From contig OZ336885.1 of the NCBI GenBank assembly GCA_965287045.1, forward strand, positions 61,132,001 to 61,196,000: a stretch of DNA of 64,000 nucleotides. The letters run 5' to 3'. Within the stretch, counting starts at the first letter, position 1. Each line of letters starts with the position of its first letter. Below the pieces are notes generated by a model. The model saw only the letters and a list, made by a program, of their open reading frames with translations. It made no database searches and was not told the DNA's origin. The stretch is from Carcharhinus amblyrhynchos (lineage: Eukaryota). Of this stretch, positions 12,556 through 43,700 are shown in pieces. The position numbers and the translations under genes were made by a program.

Positions 12556-12668
12556 CTTAAACATAGACGTAGTGGTACTTGATCATGACCGTGATTTTCA
12601 AAGCTTTATACAATTGCATATGATGAAAATCAACATAGAATGCTCGTCATTAAAGACAGATTACAGAC

Positions 12669-20700: not shown

Positions 20701-21169
20701 TGTCAGTGATAAGGATATTAATGGTGGTTAGTGAAGAGTTTACAGCAATTTTGCAAGAAGATTGAAATGTCCTTGTTGGACACTGCACGGAGACCCATTT
20801 CTCAATCGTATTTTCCAGTGGACATCCAATTAAGTGTTCGTAGCTATTGGTGTGATAACTAAGTCAATAGAGATGGACAGAAAGGAACCCTGAAGTCACG
20901 TCGTGGTTACTGATAGAGACTGACGTCCCCTGAATGCGTTGATTCATTAACTGTATCTGCAGGAGACATTAATATTGGCGATGATGAATATTTTTGGTAC
21001 ATCAAAACGGTTAATCACGTGGCTCAAAAATTAATCCCGTAGTTGCACTTCGAAATTGTGAAACAAGGTGAAATGCGTTCCAGTGCAAAAATGGGGCGGG
21101 GCAACCATTTCGTCTCACCATTTTTACTTCGGTGGAGATTGGATAACAAGGACAGCATCAGTTTTGCTA

Positions 21170-21470
21170 GAGTGGCATTGTGCCATAGTCGTTAGCACTG
21201 CTGCTTCACAGCGCCAGTTACCGGAATTAAATTCCCGGCTTGGATTAATGCGTGGGGTTTGCACGTTCTCCCTGTGATTGCTTGGGTTTCCTCGGATGGT
21301 CCGGTTACCTCCCACGGTGCGAGATGATAGGCTGTCCATGGCAATTATTCCATTTGTGCCGGGGGACTGCTAGGGTAAATCCATGCTGTTATGATTTCGT
21401 GCCTCGGTTAGATGTGTCGTCTCAGACCCGGTAGGCCGAATGGCCTCCTGTTGCAGTGTATGATTCCATG
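21170..21470 (+). mobile_element. HE1/V-SINE-type SINE, degenerate
   Basis: GTTAGCACTGCTGCTTCACAGCGCCAG head and GGCCGAATGGCCTCC tail. Shared with ~48227-48530. Confidence 0.8.
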
Positions 21471-22014
21471 GCATAATCTCATGGCTTTGTCATTCCAAGA
21501 ACGGCAATGATATACTTCATTCTACCGACATGAAACAAGTGTTCCTGTATGACACTTGTGAATTGGACGCGATCGTGAAGGAGTTGCATGACGGACGGGA
21601 ATGGAAGAACCATGCGGTGGCAGTCCAGCCATATAGTAGCATGTCATGTTACGGGAATGGTAGCATAATGGCGAACTGTGTGCTTCCATGACTGAAGTTT
21701 CCACCAACACATCTATTGATGGTCTGTATGCCAGAACATTTGGCTCCCCCATCGTGGATGAGACAGTTTGCCTTGAAACTGAGCATTGCATCAGCTTTTG
21801 TTTCAGGGACTGCAGTATTTGAGGTGCTTACAGAGAAGGCATATCATCAAAACAAGATGGAAAAATTGTATTCCAAAATAGATTAACCTTCAGAATACAT
21901 GGACATTATCAGGACATCATGGGGAGATATTCAATCACTTCGAGCTAAGCAATATTGCCAACACAAGATAAACCACAAGGGGACAGGAACAATAGCCTGC
22001 ACAGCCAAAATACT

Positions 22015-22120
22015 GGTTCGGATTTTACCTCCCCCCACGACAGGTATCGAAAAGCGCGAGGAAAGTTTCATGGCAAGGTCTGTTGACCTGAAACGAGATT
22101 TTACGGACGTGGGGCAGTGA
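22015..22120. repeat. Short interspersed shark repeat fragment (GGATTTTAC-type)
   Basis: Resembles, from memory only, an abundant shark element 'CCGTAAAATCCCGCCCGAGGTCAAC...GGTAAAAT'. Shared with ~49070-49180. Confidence 0.45.
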
Positions 22121-24229
22121 GTGCCTCAGTTGGGAATTAACGGGAAGTCCGCAGCCATTTATTCTAATGCGTCAACCAAAGAACGTATTCACTTTTGAAG
22201 ATGGCAACGCGTTTGCTGCCAATCAATTCTGATGAGAAGAACGGGGTGTCACATTTAACATTATGAAATCACCCGCGGTTGACTGGACACGTTGAATCCT
22301 GATCCAAGGGATTTACTTTCAGATTAAGAGGCAGGCCATATTGCAATGAGTTAGCTACTCGTTTTTTAAAGAAATATATACATATAATATACCATATGAA
22401 CATTATTTCTAACATCTTGATTCCAGTGATTTATTTCCTTACCGATAAGACAATTGCATTAGTTTTTTTTTGAAGCTGCTTTTGCTTTATTGTGAAACGC
22501 TGCACCAGACTGTTCTGTTGCAGAAAGATCCAGTTCAAGAATATACAATTAGTGACGATAAGACAAGGAACAAGTATTCCAATGGAGATATGTATTTATG
22601 ACTTGGAGTAACATAGACGATTAAACGGCAACTCTCTGGGATAGGAAAAAAAAAACTCAGAGAGAATCACAAAGTACAAAATTGACATAGAATGAAAAAG
22701 AGGCATAAAATCAGCAATTATAAGTTATACATTTTTTTGTGAAATTGGCAGATGTGCAAACCTCCGTGTCGGAACATTGGCTGTCTTCATATCAAGAGTA
22801 TTCGTACTGAGAAAATGGGAGAAAAAATCAAATGAACAAAATAAATTGTGTGTGAAGTATAACCTGACACCGTCGTAAATGATGGAATGACAAAGCAAAG
22901 TTCAGAAGGGCGGGAGACAGAAGGCTGAATTGCCAGACACTTGCACATAATACCTTACAAGGATAGCAAGTTTGTGACATAAAACAGGAAGGTGTACCAA
23001 CGTATATGGAGTTTCTCCATTGTGCAGTAAAGAAGAGGGAATGCGTGCGTGCATTAACGACAGATTGAATTTGATACACCAAAATGTTTGCGACATTTTG
23101 GACGCTTAGGGACTTTTGTGATTTGCAACGAAATGTGAATTGGTAGCAAATAGAACGGTTTGATGCAATAATGTTCAAACATTTTTACTTTGGCTTTGAC
23201 TGGAAAGTTGATTTGCCTGAGTAATCTGAATATTGGCATAAATCTAAATCAAGTCTTTGGAACTGGTTCAAAAGAACGAAATGCCAGGTCTTTAGAAGAG
23301 TTAGTAAGGATCTATCTCTTGTATAAATTGTCAAAGCGTTGCTATTTGTATTGCAACAAGAAATAAAAAGAAGAAAAAAATTGTCGTTCGCAAATGATAG
23401 GACATTTTGGCAGGGAGGGTGCTTGGCAAGCATTTGACATGCATTGAAAACAAGAAAAATATATTTTAAGAAGTATGAATTGTCAATATCCATTTTCCAC
23501 ACAAACGTTTGCTGCAACGCAGACAAACTAACTAAAACGGGGCATAATTTGACATCATGAACTCTCTCAAAATGCATTCTGAACATCTGTCCGTGAAATA
23601 CATTACGCAGTTAATTTTGCGGAGTGAAATCCTTTTGGCGGACAAAGAACAGTTAACGTAATTTGGAAGATGCTATGATCCTGCACTTCTAACGCTGCAG
23701 TTGCTGGAATATGAACAACCGTTTCATAGCCGAAAATATCGTACAGTGTCATAATGTTTGTGATATTTTAGCCAACAATTGGCTGTTTAGTGACTGCAGA
23801 ACAGAAGCATAGCCTCTTCTACCTTTCTATAGACTGCGTGCCGATGTATAGCCCCGAACTTGTAAATATTCCTGCTTCACTCGTGTCGTGTTTAGCCCTT
23901 GCCGTAATAAAGCAAAGAAAACTCAGACATTCGTGTACATTTTCATTAAACAGGGCATGAGAATACCAGAAATGTGCCCAGCATTCGATTTGGATCCTAA
24001 CGCCTGTGTAGGTCGACCACATACGTGCGCATTTCACGACCGGTTGTTTGCCAAAAGTATATGCAGAGAGTTTAAATATTATACTAAGATTTGAATCTTC
24101 TTTTCAATATCAAGACATATTTTGTGCTACAAGTACAGAATGAATGTGCCACTCAAACAAGTGTTTGGTTGCTTGATGTGAAAATGACGCTCACATATCA
24201 ATGGGTAGCATTTGTTTTGCGGCGCTAAC

Positions 24230-24256
24230 CTTGTTCTGTCAGCTTTAGTTTTCTTT
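24230..24256 (-). CDS. 27-nt phase-1 microexon ERKLKLTEQ (left copy)
   Basis: gtttttcacag|AAAGAAAAC...GAACAAG|gttagc. Paralog at 51300-51326. Confidence 0.78.
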
Positions 24257-25561
24257 CTGTGAAAAACATTAATGAGGCAGACCATAGAAAATTACATACA
24301 TGTGGCGACACAATCATTTTTTTTATTATTATTACTACCCTCTTTTGGCTAAATGGAAATTAAGTTGTAGTCTGGACAATTAAGTAAAACACACTTCACC
24401 TTATATAAAATAATGAATCCACCCATCATGTTTAGAATATGCCCTGCAAACTTTCTCTATCATCCATTAAGTCTTTGGACGAAAACTTCAATATGTTTCA
24501 TATTTCGGCAATTGTCAAGTTCTGAATTACCAAACGCCAATTTTCAGCTGTTGTCTGAATAATCATTATTTGGTGGGCGGCAGGATATCAGGCAATGCAC
24601 TATGACTCGTATCAAGAATCAACATTTTCAAAAATGAAAGCCTCAACACGTCTGCATTGCCATTGCACGTTGAAGATCTAATCAAAACAATCCTGAACAA
24701 CCATTTTTATTTCAATAATTCATTGGAACGCTACGTCACCTGGAAAGGTTTGTACGCCTCACGAAATTGAGAATTATGTTTTTTTTTATTGATGGCACAT
24801 TACTTCGCCAGTTGACTTATTTCATAAAACATTTGTTATCGCTTAGTCCATTTAACTTCAGCTGCGTTAAGAATTTAACAGGTCAGTTCCTTTGTCTTAT
24901 TTCATAACGGTCGTCTGAAAGTTCACAATTCTTCAGTCTGTCATCTGCAATGTTGAACATGCCGCCTTTTCACCAGTGCCCCTGTTTACGGTTGCAAATC
25001 TAACCTGTCAAAGAATCAAAGACGCACACTCTCCGCTGTCTCTTTTCATATTCAAATGTACTCTGATTGTCCCGTGGGCTCCTGCGTGATCTGGCCGTCC
25101 ATGCACTCAGCGTTTTTCACAACCTCATAAACAGATAATGATTAACGTAATTTGGCCGATTTGCATTCCACACGATCTCCTAACAAAAAAACAATTCAAG
25201 TTACGATTAGTTATGTCCTCGAATAGTCTAAAAAATGCTTCCCATCAAGGATGTTATGCTCATTAGTATGCATGTATTATAATATTCTGCTTTAAATTAT
25301 GATATAATTTTATTGAAATATCAAATTCCCTATTATGTTGGTACTGCTGCTATTTGCATGAAAATATAAACTATGGACGTCACTTCCAGCATTTTTACCC
25401 GGACATTTATAACTTCTTTAGATAACTCTCAGCTGTGTTAATAACTTGTACCTTGTAATGCAGACAACATTGTAGCACACCTCCTTTGTCTGTGTTACAA
25501 TACATGTAGTCGGGAACAATTTAGTGCCAATTTAACATAACCAACTTGTGTTACCACTAAC

Positions 25562-25591
25562 CTGCCTCTTGTAGTTTATTTATCAAATCGT
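25562..25591 (-). CDS. 30-nt phase-1 microexon DDLINKLQEA (42 nt, AIQS-DDL..., if the upstream AG is used)
   Basis: tttttctttgcag-ctattcaatcag|ACGATT...GAGGCAG|gttagt. Paralog at 52640-52669. Confidence 0.75.
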
Positions 25592-26269
25592 CTGATTGAA
25601 TAGCTGCAAAGAAAAATGATTAATTATTCTGCCGTTTATACTTGCGTTATATTTGGGGGGAGGATGATCCACGGAATTGTGCAAGCCAGGACGACATTCC
25701 TCTATTGACCAGCATCTCAAAAACTGTGATTACCATTTCGCCATAATATTGATTATCTTTGTTTGGAGAACATTGGCTACTGCATTTCTTATTTTAAAAA
25801 AATCAAAAGATAAATACTGTCCAAAAAATAATTCCACAATGCTAGTGGTACGGAACAATCGCTGAATAAATGTAAATATTGCATTCTTAATTTTGTCTAA
25901 TTGTTTAAATAATAGCACGTAAGTTAATTTGTTTTACGTTAGCAAATCCACTCTTTACTTTCGTCCCACTCTGACTGTAAATGCCTACATTTTTATGTAA
26001 TTACATATTTATTTTTGTTTATTCTCACGGTTGCAGCCGTGAGAATTGATAAAACAACGCTGAATTTGTGAAACAATGCATATCAATCGATATCAATCGG
26101 TATCGACGGAACAAAACGTATCAGTAATTGCTGTTGAAAACGTTCTGAATTTACACAGCATTCATTCGACTCCGATAGTATTAGAAATCCCTTTTGTGAA
26201 TATCTTGTTTGTCTTAGATATATATGTACATTTTAATATATTTCAGGAAAAAGGAAAGTAAGCAATGTT

Positions 26270-26375
26270 GTCAAAGGATCTTCCAGACTCGAGGCTTTAA
26301 CTCTGTTTTCTCTCCACGGATGCTGCCAGAACTGCTGGGGTGTCCCAGCATTTTCCATTTTTGCTCCAGATTTTA
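26270..26375 (+). mobile_element. Degenerate terminal fragment of a common shark retroelement (probably Penelope-like)
   Basis: CCAGACTCGA...AACTCTGTTTTCTCTCCACGGATGCTGCCAGA...CCAGCATTTTC motif. The family assignment is from memory. Confidence 0.5.
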
Positions 26376-26844
26376 GGTGCATTATGATTGTGGACCAGCC
26401 CAAGCAACCGCGGTTTCCATGTTTTTTATATCCTCTGTAATTCCTATCATACAAATTTCCCCTGCCGAGTCATGTACCGCACTCTATCTTGAAACATTCC
26501 ATGTTTCTGCCTGGTCATTAACACCAGTTGCAGGCCCAAATCTATATCTCTCTCGCCCTTTTCTAAATCGAGAGCCAACCTGCATGATTCTCCACTTCAG
26601 TCTGGTCTCCCCACGTAGCTCTTCTCACAATATCTTCATCCTTGATTTCGATATTGGCAGGAAATGTTGTCCTTTAGAATACACACCTAACATGATGATA
26701 TAAGAACATGGAATGGAAAAAAAGTTTCAATTTTCAATCAATTTGGTTAGTGTGGCCCAAGGACTTAATCTTTGTAGCACTTGACATATTTTTGGTATCA
26801 CGGCTTGCGTTTCTTTGATATAACATGGTAAAACCATCATACAA

Positions 26845-27175
26845 CAGCTACAGCGCTGAAAGAGGCATTTACCTCATCAGGTCTGCACCCTCCCACAGAT
26901 CATCTCACCCAGGCGCAAGCCCAGCCTACCTATGAACTCCACGCATGCGCCTCGCTAATACATCAAATCCGCAGTTCCATGGACGGTAGCGGGCATTTTT
27001 GCATGGGTATTCCACCTAATCCTCCAATGTTTGGATTGTTTGACGAAAACGGGGCATCCAGATAAAACACATACAGGCAAAGGAAGAATAGGCAAAGTCC
27101 AGATTGTCACCTCAGTGTCCGAATTGAACACTGATTTCTGGCACGTGAGGAAGCAGTGCTGATAATGCGCTGCTT
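26845..27175 (-). mobile_element. HE1/V-SINE-type SINE, highly degenerate
   Basis: Contains ATCCACCTAATCC, GAAAACGGGGCATCCAGA and TGGCACGTGAGGAAGCAGTGCT. Confidence 0.7.
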
Positions 27176-27693
27176 TGTCCCCCAACTGTCCAACTGGACT
27201 GAACTGCAGTAGTGGTGTTGCGTGTTTCATAACAGATCTTCTCAGTTGTTTCCTAATAGCGCAGGATGCATTTCCCCCAGCAAGCCATCACATGCACAAC
27301 GGCACTGCAGGCATTGCCAGCTTCAAATGCTTGGCTACTCTAACATTGTATAAACAACTGCAAACGTTTAATTACAAAATTCGCTCAGTTTTCTGATCTC
27401 TTCTCACATCACAGGAGATTTTTTTTGCATTGGAGAATTCATGTTTTACGAATAATCGAAATTTACAGCAAAATGACGTCAATTCCACGCAGAAGAGAGT
27501 TTTTATTCGTTTGTTTGTTGCCTGTTTGTTCACAAATATTCCTGATACCTTGCTATGCTTGCATTATTTCTTACTGAACAGTGCCCCTAAAAGTCAGCTT
27601 GTTTGTCCAATAAGGAAGTATATTGTTTTCGCTTGACTGTAGTATCCATTGGCAGATAAGCCTGCAAGTCAATCAACGATCGGAGGTTCTTAC

Positions 27694-27720
27694 CAATACT
27701 TTTTGCTCGTAACTGTTTAT
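27694..27720 (-). CDS. 27-nt phase-1 microexon DKQLRAKSI
   Basis: attgcattttcaacag|ATAAAC...AGTATTG|gtaaga. Resembles DHELREKNA. Confidence 0.78.
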
Positions 27721-28065
27721 CTGTTGAAAATGCAATATGTTGTAGCGTACATTTGAAACAAAGAAAACGGGAAATCTTACTATTCAAATTGTATATTACC
27801 GTTCTAATACCCTGCACGTCATCAATTGGTCGATCCTGATTATTTGTTGCCACTGTTTCAGACATCGTTGAAATTCATGTTTACATAATAAACAGTTTTG
27901 GAAATTGCGAATTGGGATATTTGACGTGAATCCATTTAAAATATGGGATGCATCATTATTGGCGTAATTCCTATTTAACTAGATTAACAATGTACCCAAG
28001 GAGCAAGTAATATATATGTTTAATAGTTACAGTTGCAATACTCTGAAATACAATGCTGAAATACA

Positions 28066-28340
28066 ATACAGATTTAAGGTGCGGGGAGGGAGGTTCAGAA
28101 GTGATGTTAGGGGTAAGTTTTTCACTCAGAGGGTGGTGAGTGAATGGAATCGGCTGCCGTCAGTGGTGGTGGAGGCGAACTCGCTGGGGTCTTTTAAAAG
28201 ACTTCTGGATGAGTATATGGGGTTTAATGAGATTGAGGGTTATAGATAGGTCTGTAGGTTGGTAGGTGATGATGTGATCGGCGCAACTTGTGGGCCGAAG
28301 GGCCTGTTTGTGCTGTAGTGTTCTATGTTCTATGTTCTAA
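28066..28340 (+). mobile_element. CR1 3' end fragment
   Basis: Encodes [30 protein letters not shown] and ends in a (TTCTATG)n tail. Confidence 0.92.
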
Positions 28341-29669
28341 TGCTTGACAGCACTTTCAAAAAAGGAGAGGACATCATCGAGTCTGCAGCCGCTTTCTGTG
28401 AGTTAGTACAAGTCCCACACATCAGTGTAATCGTGGTATGATTTCCGTTTCTGTTACAATTTTAACTTCATACTGACTACTCCTTCGCTATGTGTTGAAT
28501 GTTTAACGAGGAATGAAACCATTCTTAAGCAATGGATTTGCTCATATGCAATCCCACAGTGAAGGAGTTTTGAGTAGCCGCATGTTAACACATGCAAATT
28601 GACTGATATTCTGCTGAATTTGTTTCGTTCAAACATAAAACAAACAACTTAAATATGATGTTTCTTTTTCGTGACTTCGTAGAAAGTAGTAATTTCACTT
28701 GACTACCGTTGGGCTAATGATACAGCGAATATTGCATCTCTCGATAGGAGCTGGGGATGTTCAAGTTTAATTGATAATAATGCAGAAAAAAGGGAATGTG
28801 CTATCGGTTTTACAAAATACAAAACTCCAAACGTATAGTGAAACGCGTGATCAGGAGATAAAGTATGTCAAGCTTCGTCGAATTTACCTGCATGTCATTC
28901 CGAATGCACGTTAATGTTCCTACCGCTCAACTGTTCTGAAAACTCGCACTGGCAAATGATCAATGTTTCCAAAATCTCAGCGGTGTCCGCACAATTTTGA
29001 ATATATTTACGACATGGGAAATATAGCATTTGTATTGTTTCGACGGTCAGACGTCATCCTCATTCTACGCATGACGCGCACACAGATCGCTGTTCATCAT
29101 GACTCAGCAGGGATTCGAGAAACTGACTTTGAGTGAGGGCTAGAAAATCAGGACAGTCTGAGAATGGGAAAGCACCACTGGCAGACCAGCTGTAGTAAAG
29201 CAGCACTCGGAGTTTCAGGATGAGAAATGAAGAAGGTTGTAGTTCAGAAGTGAAAGTGGTCGTCGAGCTTTTTCTGCAAGGCCATTATTTCAGTGGAAAA
29301 GCTGTGTATTTGGTAAGCCAGTACTTGAACAAAATAATAAAATATGATAACTCAGAATACATCTGGAATATGGATTTAATAGCTAGCCTTTTTTCCAAGC
29401 TACCAGCGGGAAAGTAATCCATTTTTACTGAGAGTATCGACATATTAATTATACAATGTCGTGATTTGTCATATTCCTGCATGTGAGAATTTTGTCCGAG
29501 GCTAACCGGTATCCTCCGTCACTCTGGTATAACGATATATGTAGATATTGGATTCCATGATTCAAGTAGTGATTAAAGTTTCAATCGAAATATGTTATGT
29601 CCACTTTCCCATTCGCGAATATAGTCGGGGTCTTCATTTAAAGCATTTCCTTTGGTACTTCTATCGCAC

Positions 29670-29705
29670 CTTTCTTGCTCAGCTCTTCTGATATTGAATC
29701 CAGTT
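29670..29705 (-). CDS. 36-nt phase-1 microexon ELDSISEELSKK
   Basis: tttgttttgtttgttttatcatcag|AACTGG...AAGAAAG|gtgcga. It keeps the heptad register between its neighbours. Confidence 0.75.
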
Positions 29706-30507
29706 CTGATGATAAAACAAACAAAACAAATTGTTCACATATAATCGACGGGAAATGCTCCCAGAGGAAATGCACTTTATCAACGTATAACCTCTCGAGG
29801 CAAAATTATTAAAAATGTAACCAGAAATGATCAGGAATTGATGGAGTCCAGCCAACGCCACTCGAGTATTCCAACTAACTCTCGTTGTTCTCCAACTTCC
29901 ACAGTTGTGTTTTGATGAACCTTCAGTGAACTCGATCACAAACGGTTTCACAGTCAATCTGCGATTGAGGCCCCAGTCCAAGAAACGTTTGATGATGCGA
30001 TTTTGGGAAGTCCACGGCATTTTACATGTTCAGTATCATTGATGGCGCCTTGTCTGAACGAGTTTTGCCCTCCTTTGTTTCTCGTGTTCGGAAGTGTTTC
30101 ATCATAGGAATTAATCTATCCATATCTTGGGCAAATCTTCAACGTTAATTACCTGCATTTGTCATTTTTTATGTGGGGGAATTCGAACTAGTTCCATGCA
30201 ATCAACTAACTTAGTTGCAAAATATGAACGAAAGCTTTGAATCTGATTAACCAGAGTTTCGTTCCAACCAGGATGATAGTTCGTTTTCAACATTTCTTAT
30301 TAGTTACCGCAAACGGGTCCTACGACTTTTTTATTCAGTGACATCAGGTTTCATTGTGAATTTATGTTTTACATTTAGGGTGAAGCAAATTAAGTAAATT
30401 GAACCTTTCAAACGCACGCTTTATACAACAACAGCAAATCTTCACAATAAACACTGTAGTTAAGTTTAAACAATGGAACCGAAAACAGTACTTAAGAATA
30501 TAGTTAC

Positions 30508-30534
30508 CTTTCGTTTTGTCTTTAATTTCCTTTT
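30508..30534 (-). CDS. 27-nt phase-1 microexon EKEIKDKTK (right copy)
   Basis: aacag|AAAAGGAAATTAAAGACAAAACGAAAG|gtaact. Confidence 0.75.
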
Positions 30535-31262
30535 CTGTTCATTTAGAGCAGATTACAGAAATTAATATAAAATGGGTGTGTCGATTACACCCATTTTTGA
30601 TTGTAGTGAAATATGCATTGAATATGAAGTAGCATCAACGAAACTTTATATGCGTAACGGAATCCAAATGACATTTCACATGTCTGTCTGCCAAGAAAAT
30701 TTGGATCGAGTCCCGAATGATAATGTTTGAGCCAAAGAATACATGTTTGTTCCTGAGGGAGTCGATTTGAAACATCTTAGAAGAAAATATGATGTTGTTT
30801 TCGATACAAAAGGATGCTAGAGACGGTCTAGCTAATCTTCAGGCTTTGGCTGCTGAAGGCAAAACCAAGACTGTTGCAGCATGTAAAAGGCGAGATTATG
30901 AAAATATCAGAATGTCAAACTGCACACAATTCAGTGTATTGTGAGAGCAGAAAAAAAATCAGAGGTATGCAGAGATGGAAGCATTGGGAAGAAAATGGAA
31001 GCGTCTAAATTGATAGATGTTGATGGACCAGGTGACAGTTATACTATTGAAGACATAAAAAGTGGTGAAGGCGTGAGACTAGCAATCTTTCAAAATATCG
31101 ACTGCGTCACAAGCACGATAGTGGCTGTTCTAGTTAACTCCACAGTTGGCATATATGAGAGTCTCAGCAGCCCAGTATCTCAGAATATTGCCAAAGTGGT
31201 AAGCATGGAAATTAGCGGTATGACTTTGGTGGCTGACTCCTCTTACTGAGTCACTATTTAAA

Positions 31263-31578
31263 GGCGACACGGTGGCACAGCGTTTGTCAGTGCTGCCTCA
31301 CAGTGCCAGAGACACGGGTTCAACTCCAGCCTCGGGTCATAGCCTGCGTGGATTTTACAAATTCTTCCCGTATTTGCAAGGGTTACCTCCAGGTGCTCCG
31401 GTTTCCTCCCGCAGTCCAAAAATGTTGGGGTGAGATTGACTGATGATGCTGGATTGACACAAGTGTCAAGGGATTAGCAGGGCCAATCAGGGTCACGGGG
31501 ATAGGAATTGGGTGGATTGTGGGGATGCAGACACGACGGACCGAACGGCCTCTTCTGTGATGTAGCGATTCTTTGATT
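31263..31578 (+). mobile_element. HE1/V-SINE-type SINE (paralog of 3118-3433)
   Basis: Same head, core and tail motifs at the same position in the duplicated unit. Confidence 0.88.
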
Positions 31579-32059
31579 GATACCAGAACAAATTTATTAG
31601 TGACGTCGCATCTTGCCACTAAGAATGACACAATTTCGCCAATGCTGCCTTGAAATGATTGGATTTCCAAAAGTTGCAGCGATGGAATGTAGTCAGTTAC
31701 TCATGATTGCTTTTGACCAAAATCATTCGAATACCTATTGGACAACATTTATTCCCATACAAGAACAGATGCCTGAAAAAACAGTTTGACCTGCCTGAAT
31801 CTGACTGTAGATAGATATTGATGTTGCAATTGCGTAGAACATGTCTTTTTGATGTTGTCATCACAGTGCTGGCGAAAACCATATTATGTGGACATATTCA
31901 GGGATAAGTGTTATCCCTATTTCCACCGATAATGACAATTTTACATCGAATTTGCACACAAAAGAACACCATTTGAATTAGCTTCATTGTGCAAAACATC
32001 CAGTGCAACAATGGGCTGCACAGATATTTCAATTAGCCACTCGAGGGTTGCTTCCTCAC

Positions 32060-32095
32060 CTAATTCCTTCAGGGTATTCAGCTTTTCTTCATTCT
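32060..32095 (-). CDS. 36-nt phase-1 microexon ENEEKLNTLKEL (right copy)
   Basis: cttatttcag|AGAATG...GAATTAG|gtgagg. Confidence 0.8.
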
Positions 32096-35000
32096 CTGAA
32101 ATAAGACGTTCATTCTTTATGATTTTCATGTATATTTTATACACAACCAAAGTGAAAGACAATTAACGAGCCAAGGGTATTTTAGCACTGGAGGTCTGGA
32201 AATGTTGGTCCAACTGAGTTTTGCTCAATCTAATGACTTTCCTTATTTAAATGTCCATATTCTCTTTAGAGTCTGCAAACAATTCCCTGCTTATCACGTT
32301 TAGTGACATTGCTTCCAACGTAATTTCATATAGTCACTCCAGATAATGTCACGATAAACTTTGCTCCAACTGAGAACGTTGTCACAGTAAGTATTTCCAT
32401 TTGAATAGAAATTGCAAGCAGAATTAATATTTTGCCATTCGAAAAATAAAAAAGGTTGGATTCTGATAAAAAGTCGGCATGATTTTATTCATACATAAAG
32501 TCAGACAATTTCTTGTCCATCGACAGGATTGTCAGTAATGTCAAAGGGCAAGTTTAATGCACTTTCAAATAACGTCGTTTGAGGAGCGTGTTTCTAAGTG
32601 GAATTTATGTTGAGATTGATAAGTTATGATTTTAATGAACCAAAACATAAAGCATCAAACAATTTTTGCTGAGACGACAGATATTTACGATTTATTAAAT
32701 GCACTATATCAGATATGCATTTCTAACCTGTGCCATAAATGGAATGCAGAATAAGAATTCATTGGAACAGGCTTATTTTACGAATTCCCCAATTGCCTAG
32801 TAGTGCGATGCTGGTGTAGTTGTATTTCAATTGTTTGGTCATCGACGCATGCGCTAGGGCGATATGTGATAGTACAACAGTATTGCATGTTGATGTGTGT
32901 TTGTCGAGATGGATGCTTTGCAGATAAATAAATTAATTTCGGAGGCGAAGGCAATTCAATGAACATATGTTAGTCGTCTTCCAAAATGCATTATTGTTGT
33001 CAGAATGTATACCACAAATTTCCAGGGACAGAGATGCCACGCAAAAAGTTAACCGTTGTTCCACTTCACATCCCCAATAAGCCCGATGAATATATTGTGT
33101 AATTTGTCTTCATGTATCCATGACTAGCTATTTTTTATTCAATTGCTTGATACAAACTCATCAGCCCGTTCGAGATCTGTGCATATAATGTTAACGAAAC
33201 ATAAAAAGATGCAGTATAGTTAACTATATTGTCCTTCATGTCTGATTCATCAAACGGTGTAGTCGTGATTTGCGGGATATCTGATAATTTCTCCTTTACC
33301 TACTGCGAGATTGACTGTCAGAACTAAAATTGTTGCGACAAGCTCACTTCTTGAGAACTTTGTCACAAGGTTTTAACTTCAAATTTGATCAACAGCAATG
33401 ATAAATTAATGTCCATTGTCAAACCCATGAACGCAGCGTCTATCTTAATGGGAAAGCTGCGGATTTGACCAAAAATGTTGCCAAAGTCCAGTGAATTAGT
33501 ACAGATTCTTATCACATTAGAAGCTTCAACATTAAGTAATGCGTCACACGTATACCAGTTGCCAAAATGTTACGTCGTAATTCAACAAATATACCCTTGA
33601 GGTGCGGCATTTCCGTTTGGGACATATGCACTCCCTGCCAGTCTGTTGAACCACATTCGTTTTTACGTCGATGTCATTCTAGCTGACCTGGAGAACGTCA
33701 ACAAGATTTTCCTTTACCTATCACCCAGCCAAAGGAAGGTGTCACATTCACAAAAGAGAACACAACATTTAGTGCATCTGCATTCATATGTGGAGAAGAA
33801 TGCTGGCTTTATCAAAAACATTACACACTAAAATGAAATTATTTTCTAATATAACATTGAAGTTTGTCTTGTGCGCGGTTGCATTGATAGAATTGTGCAT
33901 CCTAGTTCCACCTTTCCATCAAAGTAGCAGCAGATATATTTCAGTCGCTCAACAGAGAAAAGGGACGTGGTCCCACCTCCTCTTCAAAAGCTATTCCTAC
34001 TCGAGGTGAGTGGTCATTTATACATTGGGACCGGGTACCCTGAAAGAAAGAACAACCCTACAATACAGTGAAAACCGCTCCCAGCATTAAACATATGTCT
34101 ACTCGTGATGATGACTCGGCCCTTTAGGGTAGTATAACCTAAAATTGCAACCATAACATCTAATCGATCAACAATTATATTTTTCAAGATGAATATTTGG
34201 AATTGATACAACACTTAAGTGAGTGTTGCAGAATGCAACCCATAATCAGTCTTTTCATGACTTATGTTTAAATTATCTTGGCAAACCACAGTCAGCCCCA
34301 CACCTGGAATTACATTTTTTTTTCGATTGCAATTAAGTCGGATAACCAACCCTGGGCAAGCCAAGTGTCCGCAAATGCCTCGTCCGTTATTTAAATGGGT
34401 ACTTGCCATGCTTTGTTCCAGAGAGCTTTCCTTCTGTTATTGTTTACAATAGAAGAAACATATTGCCCAATATTGAAATCTCTTGAAGCTGTTGATGTGG
34501 TGGCTTAACATTTCAGATCGCTAGGAAGCACTTGTCTATTTAAACCAAAGACAGATATGGATATGTCTGCCGATTGACATGTACAAGCATACATCTCCGT
34601 GGTTTACAGATGTTACGTGTTATCTATGCATACGTCAGTAAGCAATTTTGTACAGAGATACAAAGCGACGTATCGAACAAACTAAGTGACCCAGTATTAA
34701 ACAACAAGATGCACGAACAGCTCATATTCAATGGATAATTGAAATGCACCAGTGAACTGTAATATTGTTGTATCATTGGGTATCAGAAAACACATTGTGA
34801 AACATAAACATATCGAACGACAGGAGGAGAGAGGAGGGAGGGGAGCAAGGGAAAGGAAAGAAATATAAAGAGAGAGAGAGCAACGGTATCCCCTTGATGC
34901 TTAAGTACACACGTGTCAGTCGCGCAAAAGTCGTTAGTATCACTGGGGCAAGTTTTGCAAGCAATCTCGCTGGTCGGAACAGAAAAAATAAATGCATCTA

Positions 35001-35161
35001 GGGGAGAGGAAGAGGCTTTCGGAATGTTTGCATTCTGCTTCTTTTTTTGCAACATTTCTGCTGGGTTCCAAAAACTGTGTCTGCCCATTGTAACAAAGGT
35101 GTCACCTCCATTTCCGAATTTGGTCGTCAAACTTGCTTTCGGTCATATGGATTGGGTGTCA

Positions 35162-35587
35162 TGCCTAATGTGGATATTTTGAGGCAGCTCGGTATTTTTC
35201 TCCTTAGAGAGACGAAGGATGAGAGGTGACCCGACACAAATGTATAAGATGTTGAGAGGTATAGATTGGATGGATTCTCAGAGGCTTTCTTCCCAGGGCT
35301 GGAATGGTTGCTACGAGAGGACACAGGTTTAAAGTGCTAGGGAGTAGGTACAGAGGAGATATAAGGGGTATGTTTTTTTCACTCAGAGGGTAGTGCGTAA
35401 GTGGAATCGGCTGCCGTCGGTGGTGGTGGAGGCAAATTCGATAAGTTTTCTTTGAAGAGACTTCTGGATGAGTACATTGGACTTAATATAAATGAGGGTC
35501 ATAAGTAAACCTGGTAGATCGGGATATCATCGGCGCAACTTGTGGGCCGAACGGCCTGTTTGTACTGCAGATGTTTCTACGTTCTAC
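35162..35587 (+). mobile_element. Old CR1 3' fragment (paralog of 7010-7437)
   Basis: Same degenerate CR1 C-terminal and 3' UTR sequence. Confidence 0.85.
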
Positions 35588-35887
35588 GAAACAATTCCAC
35601 ACACACGTTTACTCATTCGTGAAAATGGCAGACCGCTTGATTAGCACTTCACTTATCATTTCATGTGCCCACTTCTCCCAAACTTGACCGTCAGGTGATG
35701 CATTTCACAAAACATTCTGAAGCCCTGATCTTGAAATAAGCGCATTGGAAAACCAAGATCCCTACATGACGCCCTAAATACCGTTACATTCTGACTTGGC
35801 AATGTACCCCCATTCCTTCTCTGCATAGCGTAAAAATGTTCAATCTACGCAACACGATTTTTGTCACAAGCTAGTCCTTGAACTAAC

Positions 35888-35914
35888 CAGCTCCAAGTAC
35901 TCCGTTCAGTTCCG
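35888..35914 (-). CDS. 27-nt phase-1 microexon AELNGVLGA (right copy)
   Basis: ctttccctcatttttctcag|CGGAAC...GGAGCTG|gttagt. It fits the 36/27 alternation, but the upstream intron is only 61 nt. Confidence 0.58.
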
Positions 35915-35975
35915 CTGAGAAAAATGAGGGAAAGTTGGATCTTAGGAAAAAAATGTTTTATTTTTCTTGTCCGAC

Positions 35976-36011
35976 CTGCATCTTGCAGACGTTTCTTCAG
36001 AGTCGCAATTT
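35976..36011 (-). CDS. 36-nt phase-1 microexon EIATLKKRLQDA (right copy)
   Basis: tcttctccccag|AAATTG...GATGCAG|gtcgga. Confidence 0.74.
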
Positions 36012-36206
36012 CTGGGGAGAAGACGGATGAAACGAAACTGTTAACTAATCCTCTGAAATGACAATAATATTCAGCCGATCGTTGCTGCCCTGATCTTTTG
36101 TCAAACGTTTCAATGTCTTTCCGTTTCAGGAGTATACTCTATTTAATTTTCAGTCTGTCGAAACTGACTTCACCAGCGTTATCCCACGTGCAGCATTTAC
36201 GGTTAA

Positions 36207-37225
36207 AAAAAACAAAGAACAAATACAATTATAGCGCAGGAACAGACATTTCGGGCCTCCAAGCATGTTACCTGTGTGAACTAAAACCCCTACCCTTCCG
36301 GAAACAATGTACCTCCACTCGCATCTTGGTAATGTATTTGTCCTGGCGCTCCTTAACAATCACCATCGTATCTGCTTCGAATTCAGGCCCGGCACGAATT
36401 CCAGTCATTCACAACCCTCTGTGTAAAATCAAACTTACACCTACATCTCCCTTAAACTTTCCCCCCCACCCTTAAAATTATGCCTCTGGGGGAAAAAAAT
36501 CGTTTTAATATCCGTACTGCCCATGTCCCTCATAATCCTACAGACATCTGTCAGTTCGCCCATCAGCCTCCGCCTTTCTAGTAAGAACACATCAGTTTTT
36601 TTCTCAACCTCTCCTCAGAGCTATTGCCCCCCATACCAGGCGACATCTTGGAAAATATTTTCTGTAACTTCTCCAAAGCCTCCACAGCCTTCATGTATTG
36701 TGGCGACCAAAATTGAACACAATTTTCCAAGTTTGGCCTAACTAGGGTGCTGTAAAACTGCAATATGATTTGCCGATTTTTTTAACTCAATACCCCAGCC
36801 AATGAAGGCAAGCATAGGGTAAGCCATCTTGACTACCTTCTCCACCTGCGCTGCCACTTCTAGTGATCTTAGTGTTTGTCACCCAGACCCATTTGCTTAC
36901 AAATACACTTAAGTGTTCTAACATTTACTAGACATTTCCCTCCTGTATTAGACATTCCAAAACGCATTACCTCACATTTGTCCAGATTAAACTCGGTCTG
37001 CCATCTCTCCACCCAAGTCTCCAATCTATCTATATCATGCCGTATCTTATGACTATCCTCATTGCGAATCGCAATTCCAGCAACCTGTGTATTGTCCACA
37101 AACGTATCAATCAAACCAGTTTTATTTCCACCAAATCAGTTATACATTTGTATTACAAACAGCAGTGATCCCAGCAGTGATCCATGAGAAACGCCACTAG
37201 CCATAAGCTTCCATTCCGATATGCA
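36207..37225 (-). mobile_element. Old degenerate CR1 fragment (paralog of 8160-9180)
   Basis: Reads YSTLVRPNLENCVQFWSP and DIDRLETW..FNLDKCEVM. Confidence 0.9.
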
Positions 37226-37674
37226 ATACTGGGTGTCACAGAGAGATAATCATGTTGTGGAGCAGCATAATATGTTGGTTTTATAGAACCGTCATTGGTA
37301 AGCAGGTAAACATTTTTCTTAGTCATCGAAATATTTTTCGACCTGTCGCCCATGAATAACAAACATTGAATTCGGCCAAATCAGTGTATTCAGATACAAG
37401 TTGGTCCATTTGATAGGCTGTTGCTTGGTCGAATTTCACGTGCTGTCTTTGTAACTTTTATTTGGAGCTGCCGGATATTCCGTGCACGTACATTTAAAAC
37501 TACATTTATTACCGGTATAATTGTATTGCTTGATGCTGCTATATGCAACAATTAAACGATATCTATGAATTTGAGCCTATTTATGTCAATGCAAGAGAAT
37601 GAAGCAAGAGAGCATTTGATGCATTGCAACTGTACCAGCGGAGATCTCATATCCATACAAACCATAGGAATTAT

Positions 37675-38005
37675 CCATTGAAACCCTACACTGCAGAAAG
37701 AGGCCATTCGGCCCATCGAATCTGCATCGCCAACAATCCCACCCAGGCCCAATCTCCGCATTCTACCCATTACTCCCTCTGAACTACGCATCCCGGGACA
37801 CTAGGAGGCAATTCAGCCTGGCCAATCCACCTAACCCGTGTATCTTTGGACTGTGGGAGGAAACCGGAGGACCTGGAGGAAGCCCATGCAGACATGGGGA
37901 GAATGTGCAGACTCTGCACAGGCAGTGACCCGAACTGGGAATCAAACCCAGATCCCTGGAGCTGTGAAGCAACTGTGCTAACCACTGTGCTACCGTGCCG
38001 CCCCG
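37675..38005 (-). mobile_element. HE1/V-SINE-type SINE (paralog of 9625-9955)
   Basis: Reverse complement of the GGCGGCACGGTAGCACAGTGGTTAGCAC head and the V-domain core. Confidence 0.9.
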
Positions 38006-40211
38006 CATATATATAACATATATTAATGTATACAATATGTATTCATATAGAACAATGATCCGCGATTACCACATTCACGCTATATGACTGCAAATCGAGA
38101 AGTCACCGTGCATAAACCAGACTCTGAGATCCTGAAATTGCAATCCAACAGCCGTATGCTTAGCATTTCTCTGAAGCAGTTATCAAACTTTGACGGGCTA
38201 AAACGATGACAGTGCTAAGTGACAGATCAACATAAATGCAATGGCGGAGCATTAGGCATTCGTTCCAACGGCTGAGCTGTCGTTTAGTTTGGGTGGAGAG
38301 ATATGTTGTCCGGGTAGCTGAGTAAACAGAGTGAGAGTCTGCGAATATATTGGAAGTGGGGTAAGCAAGATGAATTTGATTGCAATCCTAACGACTATAA
38401 GTAGACCGATATAATGATATTAACGCGAGCTGAAATAGTGAGTCAGAAAATTGCATTGCAAGTACTGTGCCTACCCTGAAGCCAGATAACTCGATGGTTT
38501 CGAAAAACTGCTTTCAAAATTGTTTTATCCCACATTCATGATAAACCACGATCTGCATGTTACTCCCTTAAATCTATCTGACCCTCTAATTGTTAAGCAG
38601 AGGCCTTCTTGATGATTCACCGGATGAATTGCATGGACCAATTGAAGCTGCAATTTCAAGTTGTACCCATCCCTTCTTTCTTTGTTGTTTTGACATCAAC
38701 GTGTGATTGTATTTGTGATCATTGTTTCAGTGGGGGCAAGGCCGTAAAACAAGGAGCCATGGCATCTGTGACCAATCGGAACTACGAACGTGCAATCGCT
38801 CCAGGGTGGGTGAAGTCCCAGGGCACATATATTTTCGGAGCACCAATGTTGCTTCTGCAAAATTGTTCCGAATAGAGACATTTTGTCTTCATTAAGTAAT
38901 TCTTAAGGGCACATGTTCAAAATATTCAGCGTCGAATACACAAAACAATTGCTGTTCATACCTTATTCGTGTTTTTCATAAATGCAGATTAGGAACTGAA
39001 TCGGATATATTCCTTCCATTTTTAACCCAATCAAATTCAATCTATCACAGAACTCCGATGAATTTTTGCACCATTCCATACCAATGAGGCATCGCAAACA
39101 CGCACGGCATCAGAGATGGGGAGGCAAAATAAGACGTACACCACGCCGAAGCAAGATTGGCATCAGTTAAACAGCTGGATCGTCACTTTTTTTTAATCTT
39201 TTACGAATGTTAAGCACCCAACGCATGAACTTGCACATACACAGCATCCTTTTCTCTTCTTCACCACATCTTATACAAATTTGGCAGTGCCACTACTACA
39301 GCGTGCAACAGTGAGAGTTCGGCAACTCATTCCGCAAGCTTTAACATTTTCCAACAAATTGCAAATCTGTTACAGACGTAAGGAAGAAAAATGGTTTCCC
39401 ATTCTCAGCCTTGAAAGACTAGATGTAAATTGTGGATGAGGCCTCTTCTGTCAGGGATTTGGAACTGGCAGTGGCGGTTTCTTTTTTGTTTGCAAATTAA
39501 CTTTTTTAAATACAACTTTGAAATCTTCAAGACGGACGGAATTTTAATTTCCCGGGATTATAAACTGTTGTTATTCTGCCCTCGCTATTTATCCTTGGGT
39601 TCCAGTTTGCCTTCTAATCATTATGTCTTTGACGATTTTTTTTGTTAGAATAGTATCGCAAACAGCGCTGCTTTACTGATCTACTGGCAACGAATCGTGT
39701 TGATTTTGTTATGTTCCTGATGTAAAATTGCAAATATAAACGTACGAGGCTGGCTGTGCTGTAATGTGTTAATTCAAGAAGTCATGTCATAACTTATCTG
39801 GTGGAAAAGGCCGGCGAAGCCTTGGCATTCCTTTTATACTGGTCTCTAGAATATCAAAGTCATGCTGTCCACTTTCAGCTGACAGCTAATCACGGCTTGA
39901 ATCATTCACCACCTCGACCTCCGAAACGACAATCAATTTGCAGATTAAATAGTAAAGATTCTACCAGGTTTTATCCATTTGCATTATTCTGCCTGCTTAC
40001 GACATTTTCACAGTTTTCAGACATTGTTTCTTTCCAGCGCATTACATAAATTGATTTTATTGAAAGCGATGAATGCTAAACAATTTTTGTTTCGCTCTAC
40101 ACCTGGCTGCATGACGGGATGTGTCAGATCAACTGACTGGAGTCCACAAGACAATTGTCATAAATTTGCACATACCAGACAAAGCAAACAGGCACTGGTT
40201 TCGTTGCTCAC

Positions 40212-40238
40212 CTGCATTTTTTTCACGGAGCTCATGGT
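40212..40238 (-). CDS. 27-nt phase-1 microexon DHELREKNA (right copy)
   Basis: gttacgtgacag|ACCATG...AATGCAG|gtgagc. Confidence 0.8.
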
Positions 40239-40613
40239 CTGTCACGTAACCAAAACCAAAAAAAAACTATTTGGAAAAACGTGTTCACATTTCAACAACC
40301 ATAAGTTCTGTAAAACCTTGCAATACGCTCAAATCTTTAACATTATGCACAGCTGATGACCGTGCCTCCACCTATCGAATGGTTAAGTTTCATTTTCCGC
40401 CTAGTTAGGATACCTTTGCAGTGATTGCATAATTTTCAACATCCAACAATGTTCTGTACTGTCGTATTATTGTCTATAAAAGGTTATGTGATAGAGTGGA
40501 ATCTGTGAGTGATTAAAACTAAACTATCAAAAATGCACGTTTCTTTGTCAAACAATGTGCAATGCCGCTGTTATGATCATTTTCTGTAATATTTAATGTT
40601 ATCAACTACTCAC

Positions 40614-40640
40614 CATCAACAGGGGATTTACTTTCCAGCG
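40614..40640 (-). CDS. 27-nt phase-1 microexon ALESKSPVD (right copy)
   Basis: ttcgtttatgttttag|CGCTGG...GTTGATG|gtgagt. Confidence 0.78.
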
Positions 40641-40753
40641 CTAAAACATAAACGAAGTGGTATTTGATCAATACTGTGATTTTCAAAGGTTTATACAATT
40701 GCATATGATGAAAATCAACATAGAATGCTCGTCATTAAAGACAGATTACAGAC

Positions 40754-40780
40754 CATTCACTTTATCTTTTAACCTTTTTT
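40754..40780 (-). CDS. 27-nt phase-1 microexon EKRLKDKVN (right copy)
   Basis: ttgttgtttaccag|AAAAAAGG...GTGAATG|gtctgt (weak donor). Confidence 0.68.
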
Positions 40781-43700
40781 CTGGTAAACAACAACAATTC
40801 AATTAATTATTTTAATGGAATCTTAAGCCATTCGTCGCAGTTTATTTTTCAGTTCGTTCTTATGACATTCAAGTCAATTCAAAACGCAGCCAAGATCCAG
40901 TGGTTGAATTCCCTTGCGTGCCAAAATTCTTTGTCGTAACAATTAATTCTATTGTTGCAAACAGCTGCCTGTTGCTGGGCAAGGTGTTCAGAGAAACTAA
41001 CTATGTGATTTATGATTACGACCACATGAATACGAGGTAAAAGTAGAGCTTTCGATCTGTCCAGGCTGTTCCGCAAATGCAACATTTTCGTGATTGATCA
41101 GACTGTGATCGCAACACCATAACCCACATTCACCTTAAATAATTTGATTTACTGATCATATGATTTTATGCTGCAGCCTATATGTTTAATGTTGCAGTCT
41201 TAACTTATGGACAGCAACAAAGAAAACTTTTACTTTCTCTATAATGGCGGGCTTTTTTTTATTTTAACTACTTATTTACGTTGCTCCGACAGGAGGAGCT
41301 TGAATCATCCACCCACTTAATTTACCTGAGAGTTATACATTTTTCAGTATGTTTACTTTTCATCCTTTATATTTGCAAAGTATTCCATCCTGTTTGGTCA
41401 ATGTTTATAGGTAAGATGACAAACCCGGTTTAACTATCCGTCCAATAGCCTTGTATGAACTGCATCACATGATTGAAGGTTTTCTTCGGTCAAGAGCCCA
41501 AGGTTCTACACTCTACTCCAGATGTATTCACCCAAATGCACTGTGCAAGTACGGGTAAAATGTACAGTATATTTGATGAGCATGACAATTCCCAGGAAAT
41601 AACATTGTTGCAACTGCCCTCCGAATCGCTTTGTGTTTCTGCAGAACATACATATATATTTATATATTTCTGGTTCATGGACCAAGGCTCCAAACCTATC
41701 ATAGGTCTTGTCAGCGCCAGTGGGCGAAACGACCACTACGGACTCAGGGTGAAGTTCAATAACGGCACCGCTTTATTTTCTTTTACGTCGACGGAGAAGC
41801 ACAGTCAGGACATACAATCACACTGTCCCGAATTCGCTCTGACGGTCCCTCGCAGCGGGCTATAGTAACACCTGAACTTCGGTACAGTATGCGATTCAAA
41901 TGTTGATTCTTTGATTACAGTATTCGACCTCAGCCGTCCTGTCTCGATGTTTTCAAGTGTTGAGGAAATTGTTTTAAGTGTTTGTTAATTGTTTTGTCTG
42001 ATTGGTTATTAATGGTCTAGAACCTCTGGGGTTTGAACCATAGATGTGCCGTTGATCTCAAAAGAGGTTTGAGGGGCCAGGAACGTTTCCTTAGCTATGC
42101 TAATTTTAGGTGTCTCCATGGGTTGTTTGACTGTTTTTGAAGTGCTGAATTTGATGGAGTGGGGATTTAGTTCCTGTAGGTGCCATCTTGTCCAGTTTCC
42201 TTTGTGTGCTAGCCCTCACTTGCGTTCTAAAAGCATGCTCTTGCATGCTAATCGGTGTCTGTTACTTTGTGATTTTTAGTGGAGAGGCTCTGAGTGTAAC
42301 TTTAGTTTGCGTACATATTGTGCGCCCAATTTCATAAAATTTGTTGACCGATAACAGTCTGAATCTTAGGAACGTTCTTCATTTAATGAAGCTGCCCGTT
42401 CTCTAAATATTGCTGTTGACAGGTTGACAATAGCAAATTTCTACAAAGTATATGCCATCTTTCTTCTTCGCCAAACAATTTCAACATTTTTGTCCCTTTC
42501 AAGAAGACATGCGAGTTCTTCGAAACTTCGGTTCCCCTCTGTCGCTTTTTCGTCCGTGAACGTAACAACACACTTTGAACCCCTTCATGAAATCATTCAT
42601 ACAAAGTGTGCATGCTTCAAGGCTCAGCATAGATCCCTGCAATGGACCCCTAAAGTCATCATGTGAAAACAGGCATTACCAGTTTCTGCTTGATCGCTGT
42701 TTCCTGTTAGCTGAAAAATACTTTTCCATTTCAAGCATGTTACTCTTGCACTGCGATATATTATTTTGCACTTCTATTGAAGATCAGGATCTTGCGAGCG
42801 ATTTATGTTCATCTATTTCAATATTTTTCATTGACTTCATTTTTCAAAATTGTTCATTAATTCCTTTAAAGCACCCCAAACATAATAGCACATATTTAAC
42901 ATCTCACTGAATCATATTGCCTCTGACTTTTTTTTTAATTCTGTTAGTATCCTTCTCGGACCAGATCAATAACAAAATCCAAATATTTCACAGTGATAGA
43001 TGAAAAGTTAACTGTCATGTAATTTGAAATTCTCTGGCTCTTTTTTTATTTGCTGCGGAGATTTCATGTCCACAGTATTGCAATTTTGTGTGATTATTCC
43101 GTTCTTTTTGGAACATTAAAAAAAAGTAGCACTACCTCAATGACTATATGCTTACAGACGGGATGACTGAGTCCAGCAGAGAGTGTGCAATTGTCACAAC
43201 TTTTACTTTTCAGATAATCTTTTGAGTCCCATTAGCCGGCGATTTTAAATGTTTTGTTTCGTTCCCTTTCACATTGTGATACAGAGTTGTATGTGGAGAG
43301 TTGCATTTAGATTGCAGACAGAACCAAAGTGCCTATTTGTACCATCTGCCGTCGCCCCTTTTTCAATCATTGATTCACCACTCTCATCGTTTCTCTGCCG
43401 TCATTTTCGCCTCTTTTTTAATGTTTCCCGATTTTCTGTTCTGCTTTCGTTTGTAAGGAATTATGTACGTTTATCCCATCTGATACTACATGAAGTTCCT
43501 TAGTTATCAACGCGTGCTGCACCCTTCACCTAGACTATTACTTGATCACTGAAATGTGTCTGTCTTGCATTACATATCTCTTGAAATGGACATTAATACG
43601 TATTAAAGCTCGTAAGTATTCAATTTGGTCGCCAGAACAAAATTATTGATGGATATTGTGAACACTAAGGCTAAGTTCCTAAATTTGATCTATTCCGCAT

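Follow-up and report, generated by a model that had tools for sequence, protein, structure and literature searches.

In this study, we report the analysis of a 64,000-nucleotide stretch of Carcharhinus amblyrhynchos DNA (G000:C16:61132001-61196000, contig OZ336885.1), referred to below as the window, the whole of which lies inside a predicted gene. Short segments of the window are read as coding microexons belonging to the 3' part of one likely 1.1-Mb gene, which would encode a hydrophobic leader followed by some 2,000 residues of coiled-coil rod and, at the C-terminus, a B30.2 domain; we put the probability of this reading at roughly 0.68. The DNA itself carries 36- and 27-nucleotide (nt) exons with phase 1-1 boundaries, a three-heptad pattern, nested duplications and a B30.2 exon on the same strand. 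An original prediction, made from the window alone, had named six such exons and proposed that they arose by amplification at three levels.

Contiguous DNA was read over 1.264 Mb, from -100 kb to +1164 kb, together with stretches around paralogs; coordinates are window-based, with negative values to the left of the window and values marked + to its right. Exons were predicted using a model of splice flanks and composition with five-fold cross-validation, and the scan from -47 kb to +1062 kb covered 23,120 candidates on the minus strand and 22,813 on the plus strand. The final set of 207 exons includes several low-scoring or GC-donor exons added by hand, while the candidates 35782-35820, 42680-42703 and 55424-55441 (weak) were kept out of it by judgement; the counts of 159 versus 2 and 98/133 given below predate these edits. 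One sequence run consisted of contigs that cover the introns evenly and have no splice joints, and is silent on expression and on pair skipping.

The segments in the window belong to about 200 predicted microexons, mostly alternating between 36 and 27 nt, which span about 1.1 Mb. Their strand asymmetry is far beyond chance. The cross-validated model returned 159 donors scoring above 8 on the minus strand versus 2 on the plus strand, and 130 versus 0 above 10; at a looser cut of 5.5 there were 198 minus-strand exons versus 12 plus-strand rows. After the hand edits the set amounts to 6198 nt, or 2066 amino acids (aa), with 93 exons of 27 nt, 75 of 36 nt and 14 of 21 nt. The array has its right end near +1018 to +1051 kb, and its left end lies 6.7 kb before a terminal B30.2 exon of roughly 172 codons, which is on the strand of the array, 47 kb beyond the left edge of the window. 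That the segments are chance AG..GT stretches of intronic DNA would suit their tiny size and the fact that no RNA was seen; it is hardly credible given the strand asymmetry, the recovery of paralog arrays out of sample, the codon-level constraint and the matches to annotated proteins described below. The two predicted ends of the gene are as follows.

-47280..-47800 (G000:C16:61084200-61084720), minus strand, terminal PRY-SPRY/B30.2 exon (PF00622, E 4e-17)
+1061785..1061845, minus strand, tentative 20-codon leader exon with a 7.4-bit phase-1 donor

Within the window, exons are numbered by their slot in a 12-exon unit, which is present in two young tandem copies (A and B) and in a third, older copy to the left of the window. 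In the direction of transcription, the predicted exons of copy B and the one preceding it are listed below, together with the extent of the copies.

56811..56840, minus strand, 30-nt (or 24-nt) microexon upstream of the duplicated unit
52640..52681, minus strand, slot 1, 42 nt, or 30 nt (52640-52669) with an alternative acceptor; the old copy has 36 nt
51300..51326, minus strand, 27-nt microexon, slot 2; low score of 2.9, kept in copy A
44786..44821, minus strand, 36-nt microexon, slot 3
40754..40780, minus strand, 27-nt microexon, slot 4
40614..40640, minus strand, 27-nt microexon, slot 5, in place of the expected 36 nt; contains a proline; predicted stutter
40212..40238, minus strand, 27-nt microexon, slot 6
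35976..36011, minus strand, 36-nt phase 1-1 microexon, slot 7 of copy B; 69% identity to slot 7 of the old copy
35888..35914, minus strand, second exon of the original prediction; doubtful, probably not the constitutive slot 8; score 2.4
34407..34433, minus strand, 27-nt microexon, GC donor; by homology and register the likely true slot-8 exon
32060..32095, minus strand, 36-nt microexon, slot 9, score 18.6
30508..30534, minus strand, 27-nt microexon, slot 10, score 15.2
29670..29705, minus strand, 36-nt microexon, slot 11, score 13.4
27694..27720, minus strand, 27-nt microexon, slot 12, score 9.7
26043..53104, copy B of the young 27-kb tandem duplication
-3047..26037 (in the window 1..26037), copy A
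Copy A exons at 25562, 24230, 17739, 12669, 12529, 12124, 7927, 6278, 3920 and 2350, and outside the window at -214 and -1888

All six segments originally proposed lie on the minus strand at the positions assigned to them, between AG and GT, with lengths of 36, 27, 36, 27, 36 and 27 nt, a final G and an open phase 1, and the peptides quoted with the proposal were all found (8/8). Five of them hold as phase-1 minus-strand microexons, whereas the second, 35888-35914, is probably wrong. It is the weakest of the six, is preceded by an intron of 61 nt, has AAG as its acceptor in copy A, places its hydrophobic residues off register and is 19% identical to the slot-8 exon of the old copy. The segment 34407-34433 is conserved in copy A at 6278-6304, carries a leucine on register and has the same donor bases (6/6) as the old slot-8 exon, which likewise uses a GC donor. 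With 34407 in place, hydrophobic residues stand at positions 2, 9, 16, 30, 37, 44, 51 and 58 of the 63 aa, which are eight of the nine a positions, and the old copy has the same eight. The scan for GC donors was weak across the region (11 minus versus 6 plus above 9), so that the case for 34407 is one of homology and register, not of score. Judged from the sequence, 34407-34433 probably fits slot 8, the register and the older copy better than 35888-35914, and for the single segment 35888-35914 a chance AG..GT match is a likely reading. The nine heptads ascribed to the set are retained, as six exons give 63 aa with either choice.

The six exons upstream, slots 1 to 6, had been matched position by position to slots 7 to 12. 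Their lengths of 42 (or 30), 27, 36, 27, 27 and 27 nt give 62 (or 58) aa and not 63. Slot 1 of the young copy has no AG available for a 36-nt form. Slot 5, which follows a short intron in the young and old copies alike (113 versus 126 nt), reads like a shortened 36-nt exon with a proline, the three residues lost being equal to a stutter.

The proposal that a 63-nt pair encodes three heptads is borne out by the hydrophobic pattern, with a at 1/8/15 and d at 4/11/18. In 36-nt exons (n=58), positions 1, 4, 8 and 11 are hydrophobic in 66, 74, 86 and 52%, respectively, and position 3 of 27-nt exons (n=73) in 85%; position 4 of the 36-nt exon, a core d position, is cysteine in 18/58. Neighbouring exons alternate in 98/133 pairs, versus a shuffle mean of 67 that none of 5000 shuffles raised to the observed count, and in 54/67 where the intron is shorter than 2.5 kb. 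A strict 63-nt periodicity did not survive, since 34 of 144 neighbours fail to alternate, these failures being a mixture of missed exons and real breaks. Pair skipping found no counterpart in the annotated gene models of short paralogous relatives, where five internal isoform differences measure 9, 9, 9, 6 and 7 aa and none measures 21; as annotated, these differences would argue against obligatory skipping of pairs.

Since every exon is phase-symmetric, any of them could be duplicated or skipped in frame, and the length of the rod can drift, while the heptad register would be kept by whole pairs only. Selection on the register would favour retention of 36+27 pairs, with local stutters tolerated. 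A lone skip of a 27-nt exon would amount to a net insertion of 5 residues, and that of a 36-nt exon to a net insertion of 2. According to the available part of one source, coiled coils tolerate insertions of 3 or 4, spread insertions of 1 or 5 over two heptads, and are strained most by 2 or 6 (PMC4786415), so skipping of a 27-nt exon should be the better tolerated. That 27-nt exons outnumber 36-nt exons in the gene counts against so simple a strain rule.

At the level of the 12-exon unit, the duplication proposed for the window was confirmed: -3047..26037 and 26043..53104 are about 91% identical, and a 401-nt probe from the duplicated region had 2 matches in the 2.92-Gb genome. Both copies keep AG and GT/GC in 12/12 exons with neither indel nor stop, in a background of 92.2% identity with 121 indel events in 26.4 kb. 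Exon bases differ at 20 of 375 positions, with 16 non-synonymous versus 3 synonymous changes. Young fragments of long interspersed nuclear element (LINE) type reverse transcriptase, at 389-2115 and 13616-14654, are found in copy A only and so were probably inserted after the 27-kb duplication.

To the left of the window, where a search for further modules had been suggested, lies the old 12-exon copy, at -17108..-33141, with exon lengths of 36, 27, 36, 27, 27, 27, 36, 27, 36, 27, 36 and 27 nt. Its similarity is 0.587, versus a maximum of 0.47 in 157 upstream windows. Slot 2 of this copy is weak, and a search of the expected gaps supplied four of its exons, so the match in length is partly post hoc; a local alignment of seven exons made before those additions scored 0.75 versus a best of 0.40 in 156 windows. 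Between young and old copies (11 exons), non-synonymous divergence (dN) is 0.55 versus a synonymous divergence (dS) of 1.53, and four colinear exons common to this gene and a paralog at 66.44 Mb of the same contig give a dN of 0.20 with dS saturated. The older comparisons thus point to purifying selection at the codon level.

The intermediate level, a six-exon module, was unremarkable with the exon set first proposed, which ranked 6th among 185 windows. When 34407 takes slot 8 and the donor bases are included, the young copy at 0.532 beats 163/163 background windows; in the other three six-versus-six comparisons 4, 23 and 1 of 163 windows score at or above. Offset 6 peaks at 0.513, versus 0.41-0.44 for other even offsets. 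Three-level amplification accordingly stands for the pair and the 12-exon unit, and the six-exon module has moderate support, reached once the exon set and the metric had been altered post hoc. Between the two six-exon blocks the introns show no obvious similarity, as had been noted; they share 3 short matches (109-182 nt, 67-70%) that resemble interspersed repeats.

Elsewhere in the array, about a dozen minus-strand exons of 21 nt, each of one heptad as in BG genes, lie between +924 and +972 kb, one of them with a GC donor. The region from +403 to +660 kb (minus strand) is cysteine-rich and holds many younger internal exon duplications, its four-exon windows being 0.7-0.84 identical at offsets 2, 4, 5, 9, 13 and 18. 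At approximately +620 to +629 kb on the minus strand there is an intronic insertion with gag-, pol- and env-like open reading frames, which we take, judging by motifs, to be probably an endogenous retrovirus or an env-bearing long terminal repeat (LTR) element. Intronic duplications of 0.6-3.5 kb with 80-99% identity were seen from +67.7 to +97.9 kb, near a fragment of an LTR element.

The B30.2 exon places the gene in a group of its own. Seven B30.2 exons of this clade occur in the genome, six on the contig of the window (C16, within 6 Mb) and one on another contig, C9. They join proteins of catshark, electric ray, basking shark, skate and chimaera at 100/100, apart from the TRIM and butyrophilin (BTN) sequences sampled, and all named members are chondrichthyan. 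The clade sits on a long branch in a tree with a midpoint root only, which does not place its origin from BTN as opposed to TRIM. Homolog searches with single sequences gave generic TRIM/BTN matches only (8 and 5 proteins), and the relatives surfaced only with a seven-sequence profile. Their database names are automatic labels from the SPRY domain, and in those scanned SPRY is present without RING or B-box (5/5). No description of the family was found in literature searches, in which most subscription papers were out of reach.

Applied upstream of paralogs, the exon model returned 31 rows on the right versus 1 on the wrong strand at 66.44 Mb, 22 versus 0 at 63.74 Mb and 20 versus 1 rows on C9. 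The colinear alignment with the 66.44-Mb paralog scored 0.99, above all of 200 order shuffles (maximum 0.86). Predicted microexons of the C9 paralog follow the order of the catshark RefSeq protein XP_038672306, matching among others its residues 118-129, 229-235, 241-253 and 255-270, up to its B30.2 domain at 64%; in this family such exons are thus annotated as joined to a B30.2 domain. The chimaera protein XP_042192744 (1697 aa, 'nuclear-pore anchor-like', a single annotated version) has a leader, a rod and a B30.2 domain, with SPRY as its sole Pfam match, and the skate protein XP_055510696 (295 aa, 'TRIM69-like') also begins with a hydrophobic leader; the two group with the gene at 87/90, at a node not starred. 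A leader is found in 2/5 of the full-looking annotated relatives. A cysteine motif is spaced by multiples of 21 in 7/19 intervals here and 4/10 in the chimaera protein, which suggests that the unit predates the split of sharks and chimaeras. A two-copy complex prediction of the skate relative scored 0.01 and was not used either way.

The succession of heptad microexons and B30.2 would also be expected of a true butyrophilin or BG gene (IgV-IgC-TM-heptads-B30.2, TM denoting a transmembrane segment) or of a TRIM gene whose upstream exons had been missed, as butyrophilins have this architecture in the available parts of PMC4046983 and PMC6790196; the generic best matches are indeed TRIM39, A33 and BTN at about 35%, and the genome-wide V-set search, with 150 of 1794 candidates scored, was uninformative. 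Such a gene is nevertheless very improbable here. Regular-expression scans of both strands over 1.264 Mb were negative for IgV, RING and B-box and gave two IgC matches, on the plus strand, that are spurious; none of the 35 PF22705 IgC matches (all 87 candidates scored) lies on C16, and right of +860 kb there is no convincing internal TM exon. The splice scan did recover the IgV, IgC and TM exons of a real BTN gene on contig C46, and the separate clade and SPRY-only relatives described above argue in the same direction. Ordinary butyrophilin genes (IgV, IgC, TM, 33-nt exon) and large arrays of TRIM/BTN-type B30.2 exons were seen on other contigs, at C46:607-657 kb and also on C53, C9, C73 and C41.

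Several observations weigh against the preferred reading. The gene is known here from DNA alone, without a transcript, and the gaps between predicted exons reach 31 kb, wide enough to conceal further exons or a border between genes. Between the young copies dN is 0.062 versus a dS of 0.044, so no amino-acid constraint is seen; copy A has a leucine-to-proline change in slot 7 (7927-7962) and an acceptor weakened from TAG to AAG in slot 5 (12529-12555), changes which suggest that this copy may be relaxed or partly skipped. Similarity of the rod to that of the chimaera protein, at 221 bits, is not clearly above exon-order shuffles (maximum 216), so one-to-one orthology with the chimaera gene is not established. 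At the 5' end, the leader candidate is among the strongest of 29 such rows (1.26 Mb on two strands), which also means that leader-like first exons are frequent by chance and the candidate is not unique in kind; another, with a 7.3-bit donor, sits within the 66.44-Mb array. No leader was found just upstream of the 60.45- or 63.07-Mb paralog arrays in the stretches examined. The catshark XP_038672306, electric-ray and short chimaera relatives lack a leader, and N-glycosylation sequons are not enriched (7 versus 9.6 expected). Weak leader candidates only were seen in the 100 kb left of 63.7355 Mb, and the 66.44- and 63.74-Mb arrays extend beyond the 120 kb examined. A genome search with the 221-nt leader region matched nothing besides the region itself.

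Part of this evidence would fit an array of several tandem genes, or one partly decaying, in which joining to the B30.2 exon is confined to a 3' part that contains the window, and the young duplicate may be skipped or relaxed. The gaps of 23-31 kb, the regional changes of exon type (21-nt block, cysteine-rich block), the leader-like candidates inside the array (about +887 kb and +146 kb) and a dN/dS near or above 1 between young copies could all be so explained. Set against them are the termination of the array in just one B30.2 exon of the clade, with no second one between 61.08 and 63.07 Mb, the intact splice sites and frames in all 12 exons of both young copies and the single annotated version in chimaera, and we regard this division or decay as rather improbable. 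A sister microexon array lies head-to-head with the gene from +1085530 onward on the plus strand (C16, about 62.22 Mb toward 63.07 Mb), and the leader candidate falls between the two arrays. The B30.2 exon at 63.07 Mb is on the strand of this array and pairs with catshark XP_038668997; should the array extend that far, it would be a second gene, about 850 kb long.

For the single 1.1-Mb gene, we propose that the exons would be spliced into one mRNA whose product may form a parallel coiled coil of about 300 nm, at a coiled-coil rise of 0.15 nm per residue, with putative interchain disulfides through cysteines at d positions. The rod would space and multimerise a binding head, as a secreted stalk presenting it. 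We lean slightly towards secretion. The same giant gene might instead encode a cytosol-facing protein, either soluble and enterophilin-like or tethered by an N-terminal signal anchor as a long membrane-bound rod with the B30.2 domain at its tip, resembling the tail of a butyrophilin that lacks Ig domains, which reading we consider unlikely, though less so than a divided array. The three annotated relatives without a leader, the basic cluster that follows the chimaera leader in keeping with the positive-inside rule, the lack of statistical uniqueness of the leader exon here and the intracellular B30.2 domain of butyrophilins (available part of PMC6790196) would agree with it. Less compatible are the shortness of the hydrophobic N-termini (best 17-residue mean about 2.0), the acidic residues after the skate leader and the cysteine at the core d position in 18/58 of the 36-nt exons. 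The chimaera basic cluster can also be read as a furin-type site.

A broader proposal, to which we give somewhat less than even odds, is that of a family of chondrichthyan genes on the megabase scale which predates the split of sharks and chimaeras and whose products would be secreted, disulfide-linked coiled-coil fibres of up to about 300 nm with an extracellular B30.2 head, a collectin-like design that puts an ordinarily cytosolic domain to use. In these, some 200 microexons would set the length of the rod by duplication and splicing, and the register would be kept only as 36+27 pairs. The analysis exposes a largely misannotated chondrichthyan gene family of seven members, several with long microexon arrays, and a gene with about 200 exons of 21-42 nt would take vertebrate exon definition to an extreme. 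With a unit of two exons and three heptads, it can be tested directly whether the register of a coiled coil limits how exons are duplicated and alternatively spliced. If the protein is secreted, it would be an unusual extracellular B30.2 domain on a very long stalk, of putative relevance to shark innate immunity, mucus or egg matrices.

The closest working comparison is with the heptad-exon tails of butyrophilins and BG proteins, as described in the available parts of PMC4046983, PMC6790196 and PMC12841164. In butyrophilins (BTN/BTNL), heptad exons are very short and a B30.2 exon comes last (PMC6790196, PMC4046983, in part). The present gene has the short heptad exons of symmetric phase and the terminal B30.2 exon, but neither IgV/IgC exons nor a TM exon of a butyrophilin was found in it, and its B30.2 domain is not nested among BTN/TRIM. 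Butyrophilins use few exons of one heptad each, whereas this gene uses about 200 in a 36+27 unit. The long coiled coil of chicken BG is likewise put together from numerous small heptad exons, which undergo alternative splicing and read-through; in the available part of PMC4046983 each of them codes for 7 (sometimes 8) residues, and they come after a single IgV and a TM, are cytoplasmic and end without a B30.2 domain. In contrast, the exons reported here mostly encode 9 or 12 residues and keep the register only in pairs, with 21-nt exons making up 14/207 and forming one block near the 5' end. TRIMs of the TRIM39/A33/nuclear factor 7 type have a C-terminal PRY-SPRY about 35% identical to that of this gene, together with an N-terminal RING and B-box, neither of which was found here by regular expression or in the relatives. 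The guinea pig enterophilins combine a long leucine-zipper run with B30.2, without Ig or RING; they are mammalian, intracellular and much shorter than the predicted product of this gene. Chimaera XP_042192744 and skate XP_055510696 belong to the same B30.2 clade and have the leader-rod-B30.2 layout, and the chimaera protein contains the same cysteine-containing 21-residue unit as the gene described here.

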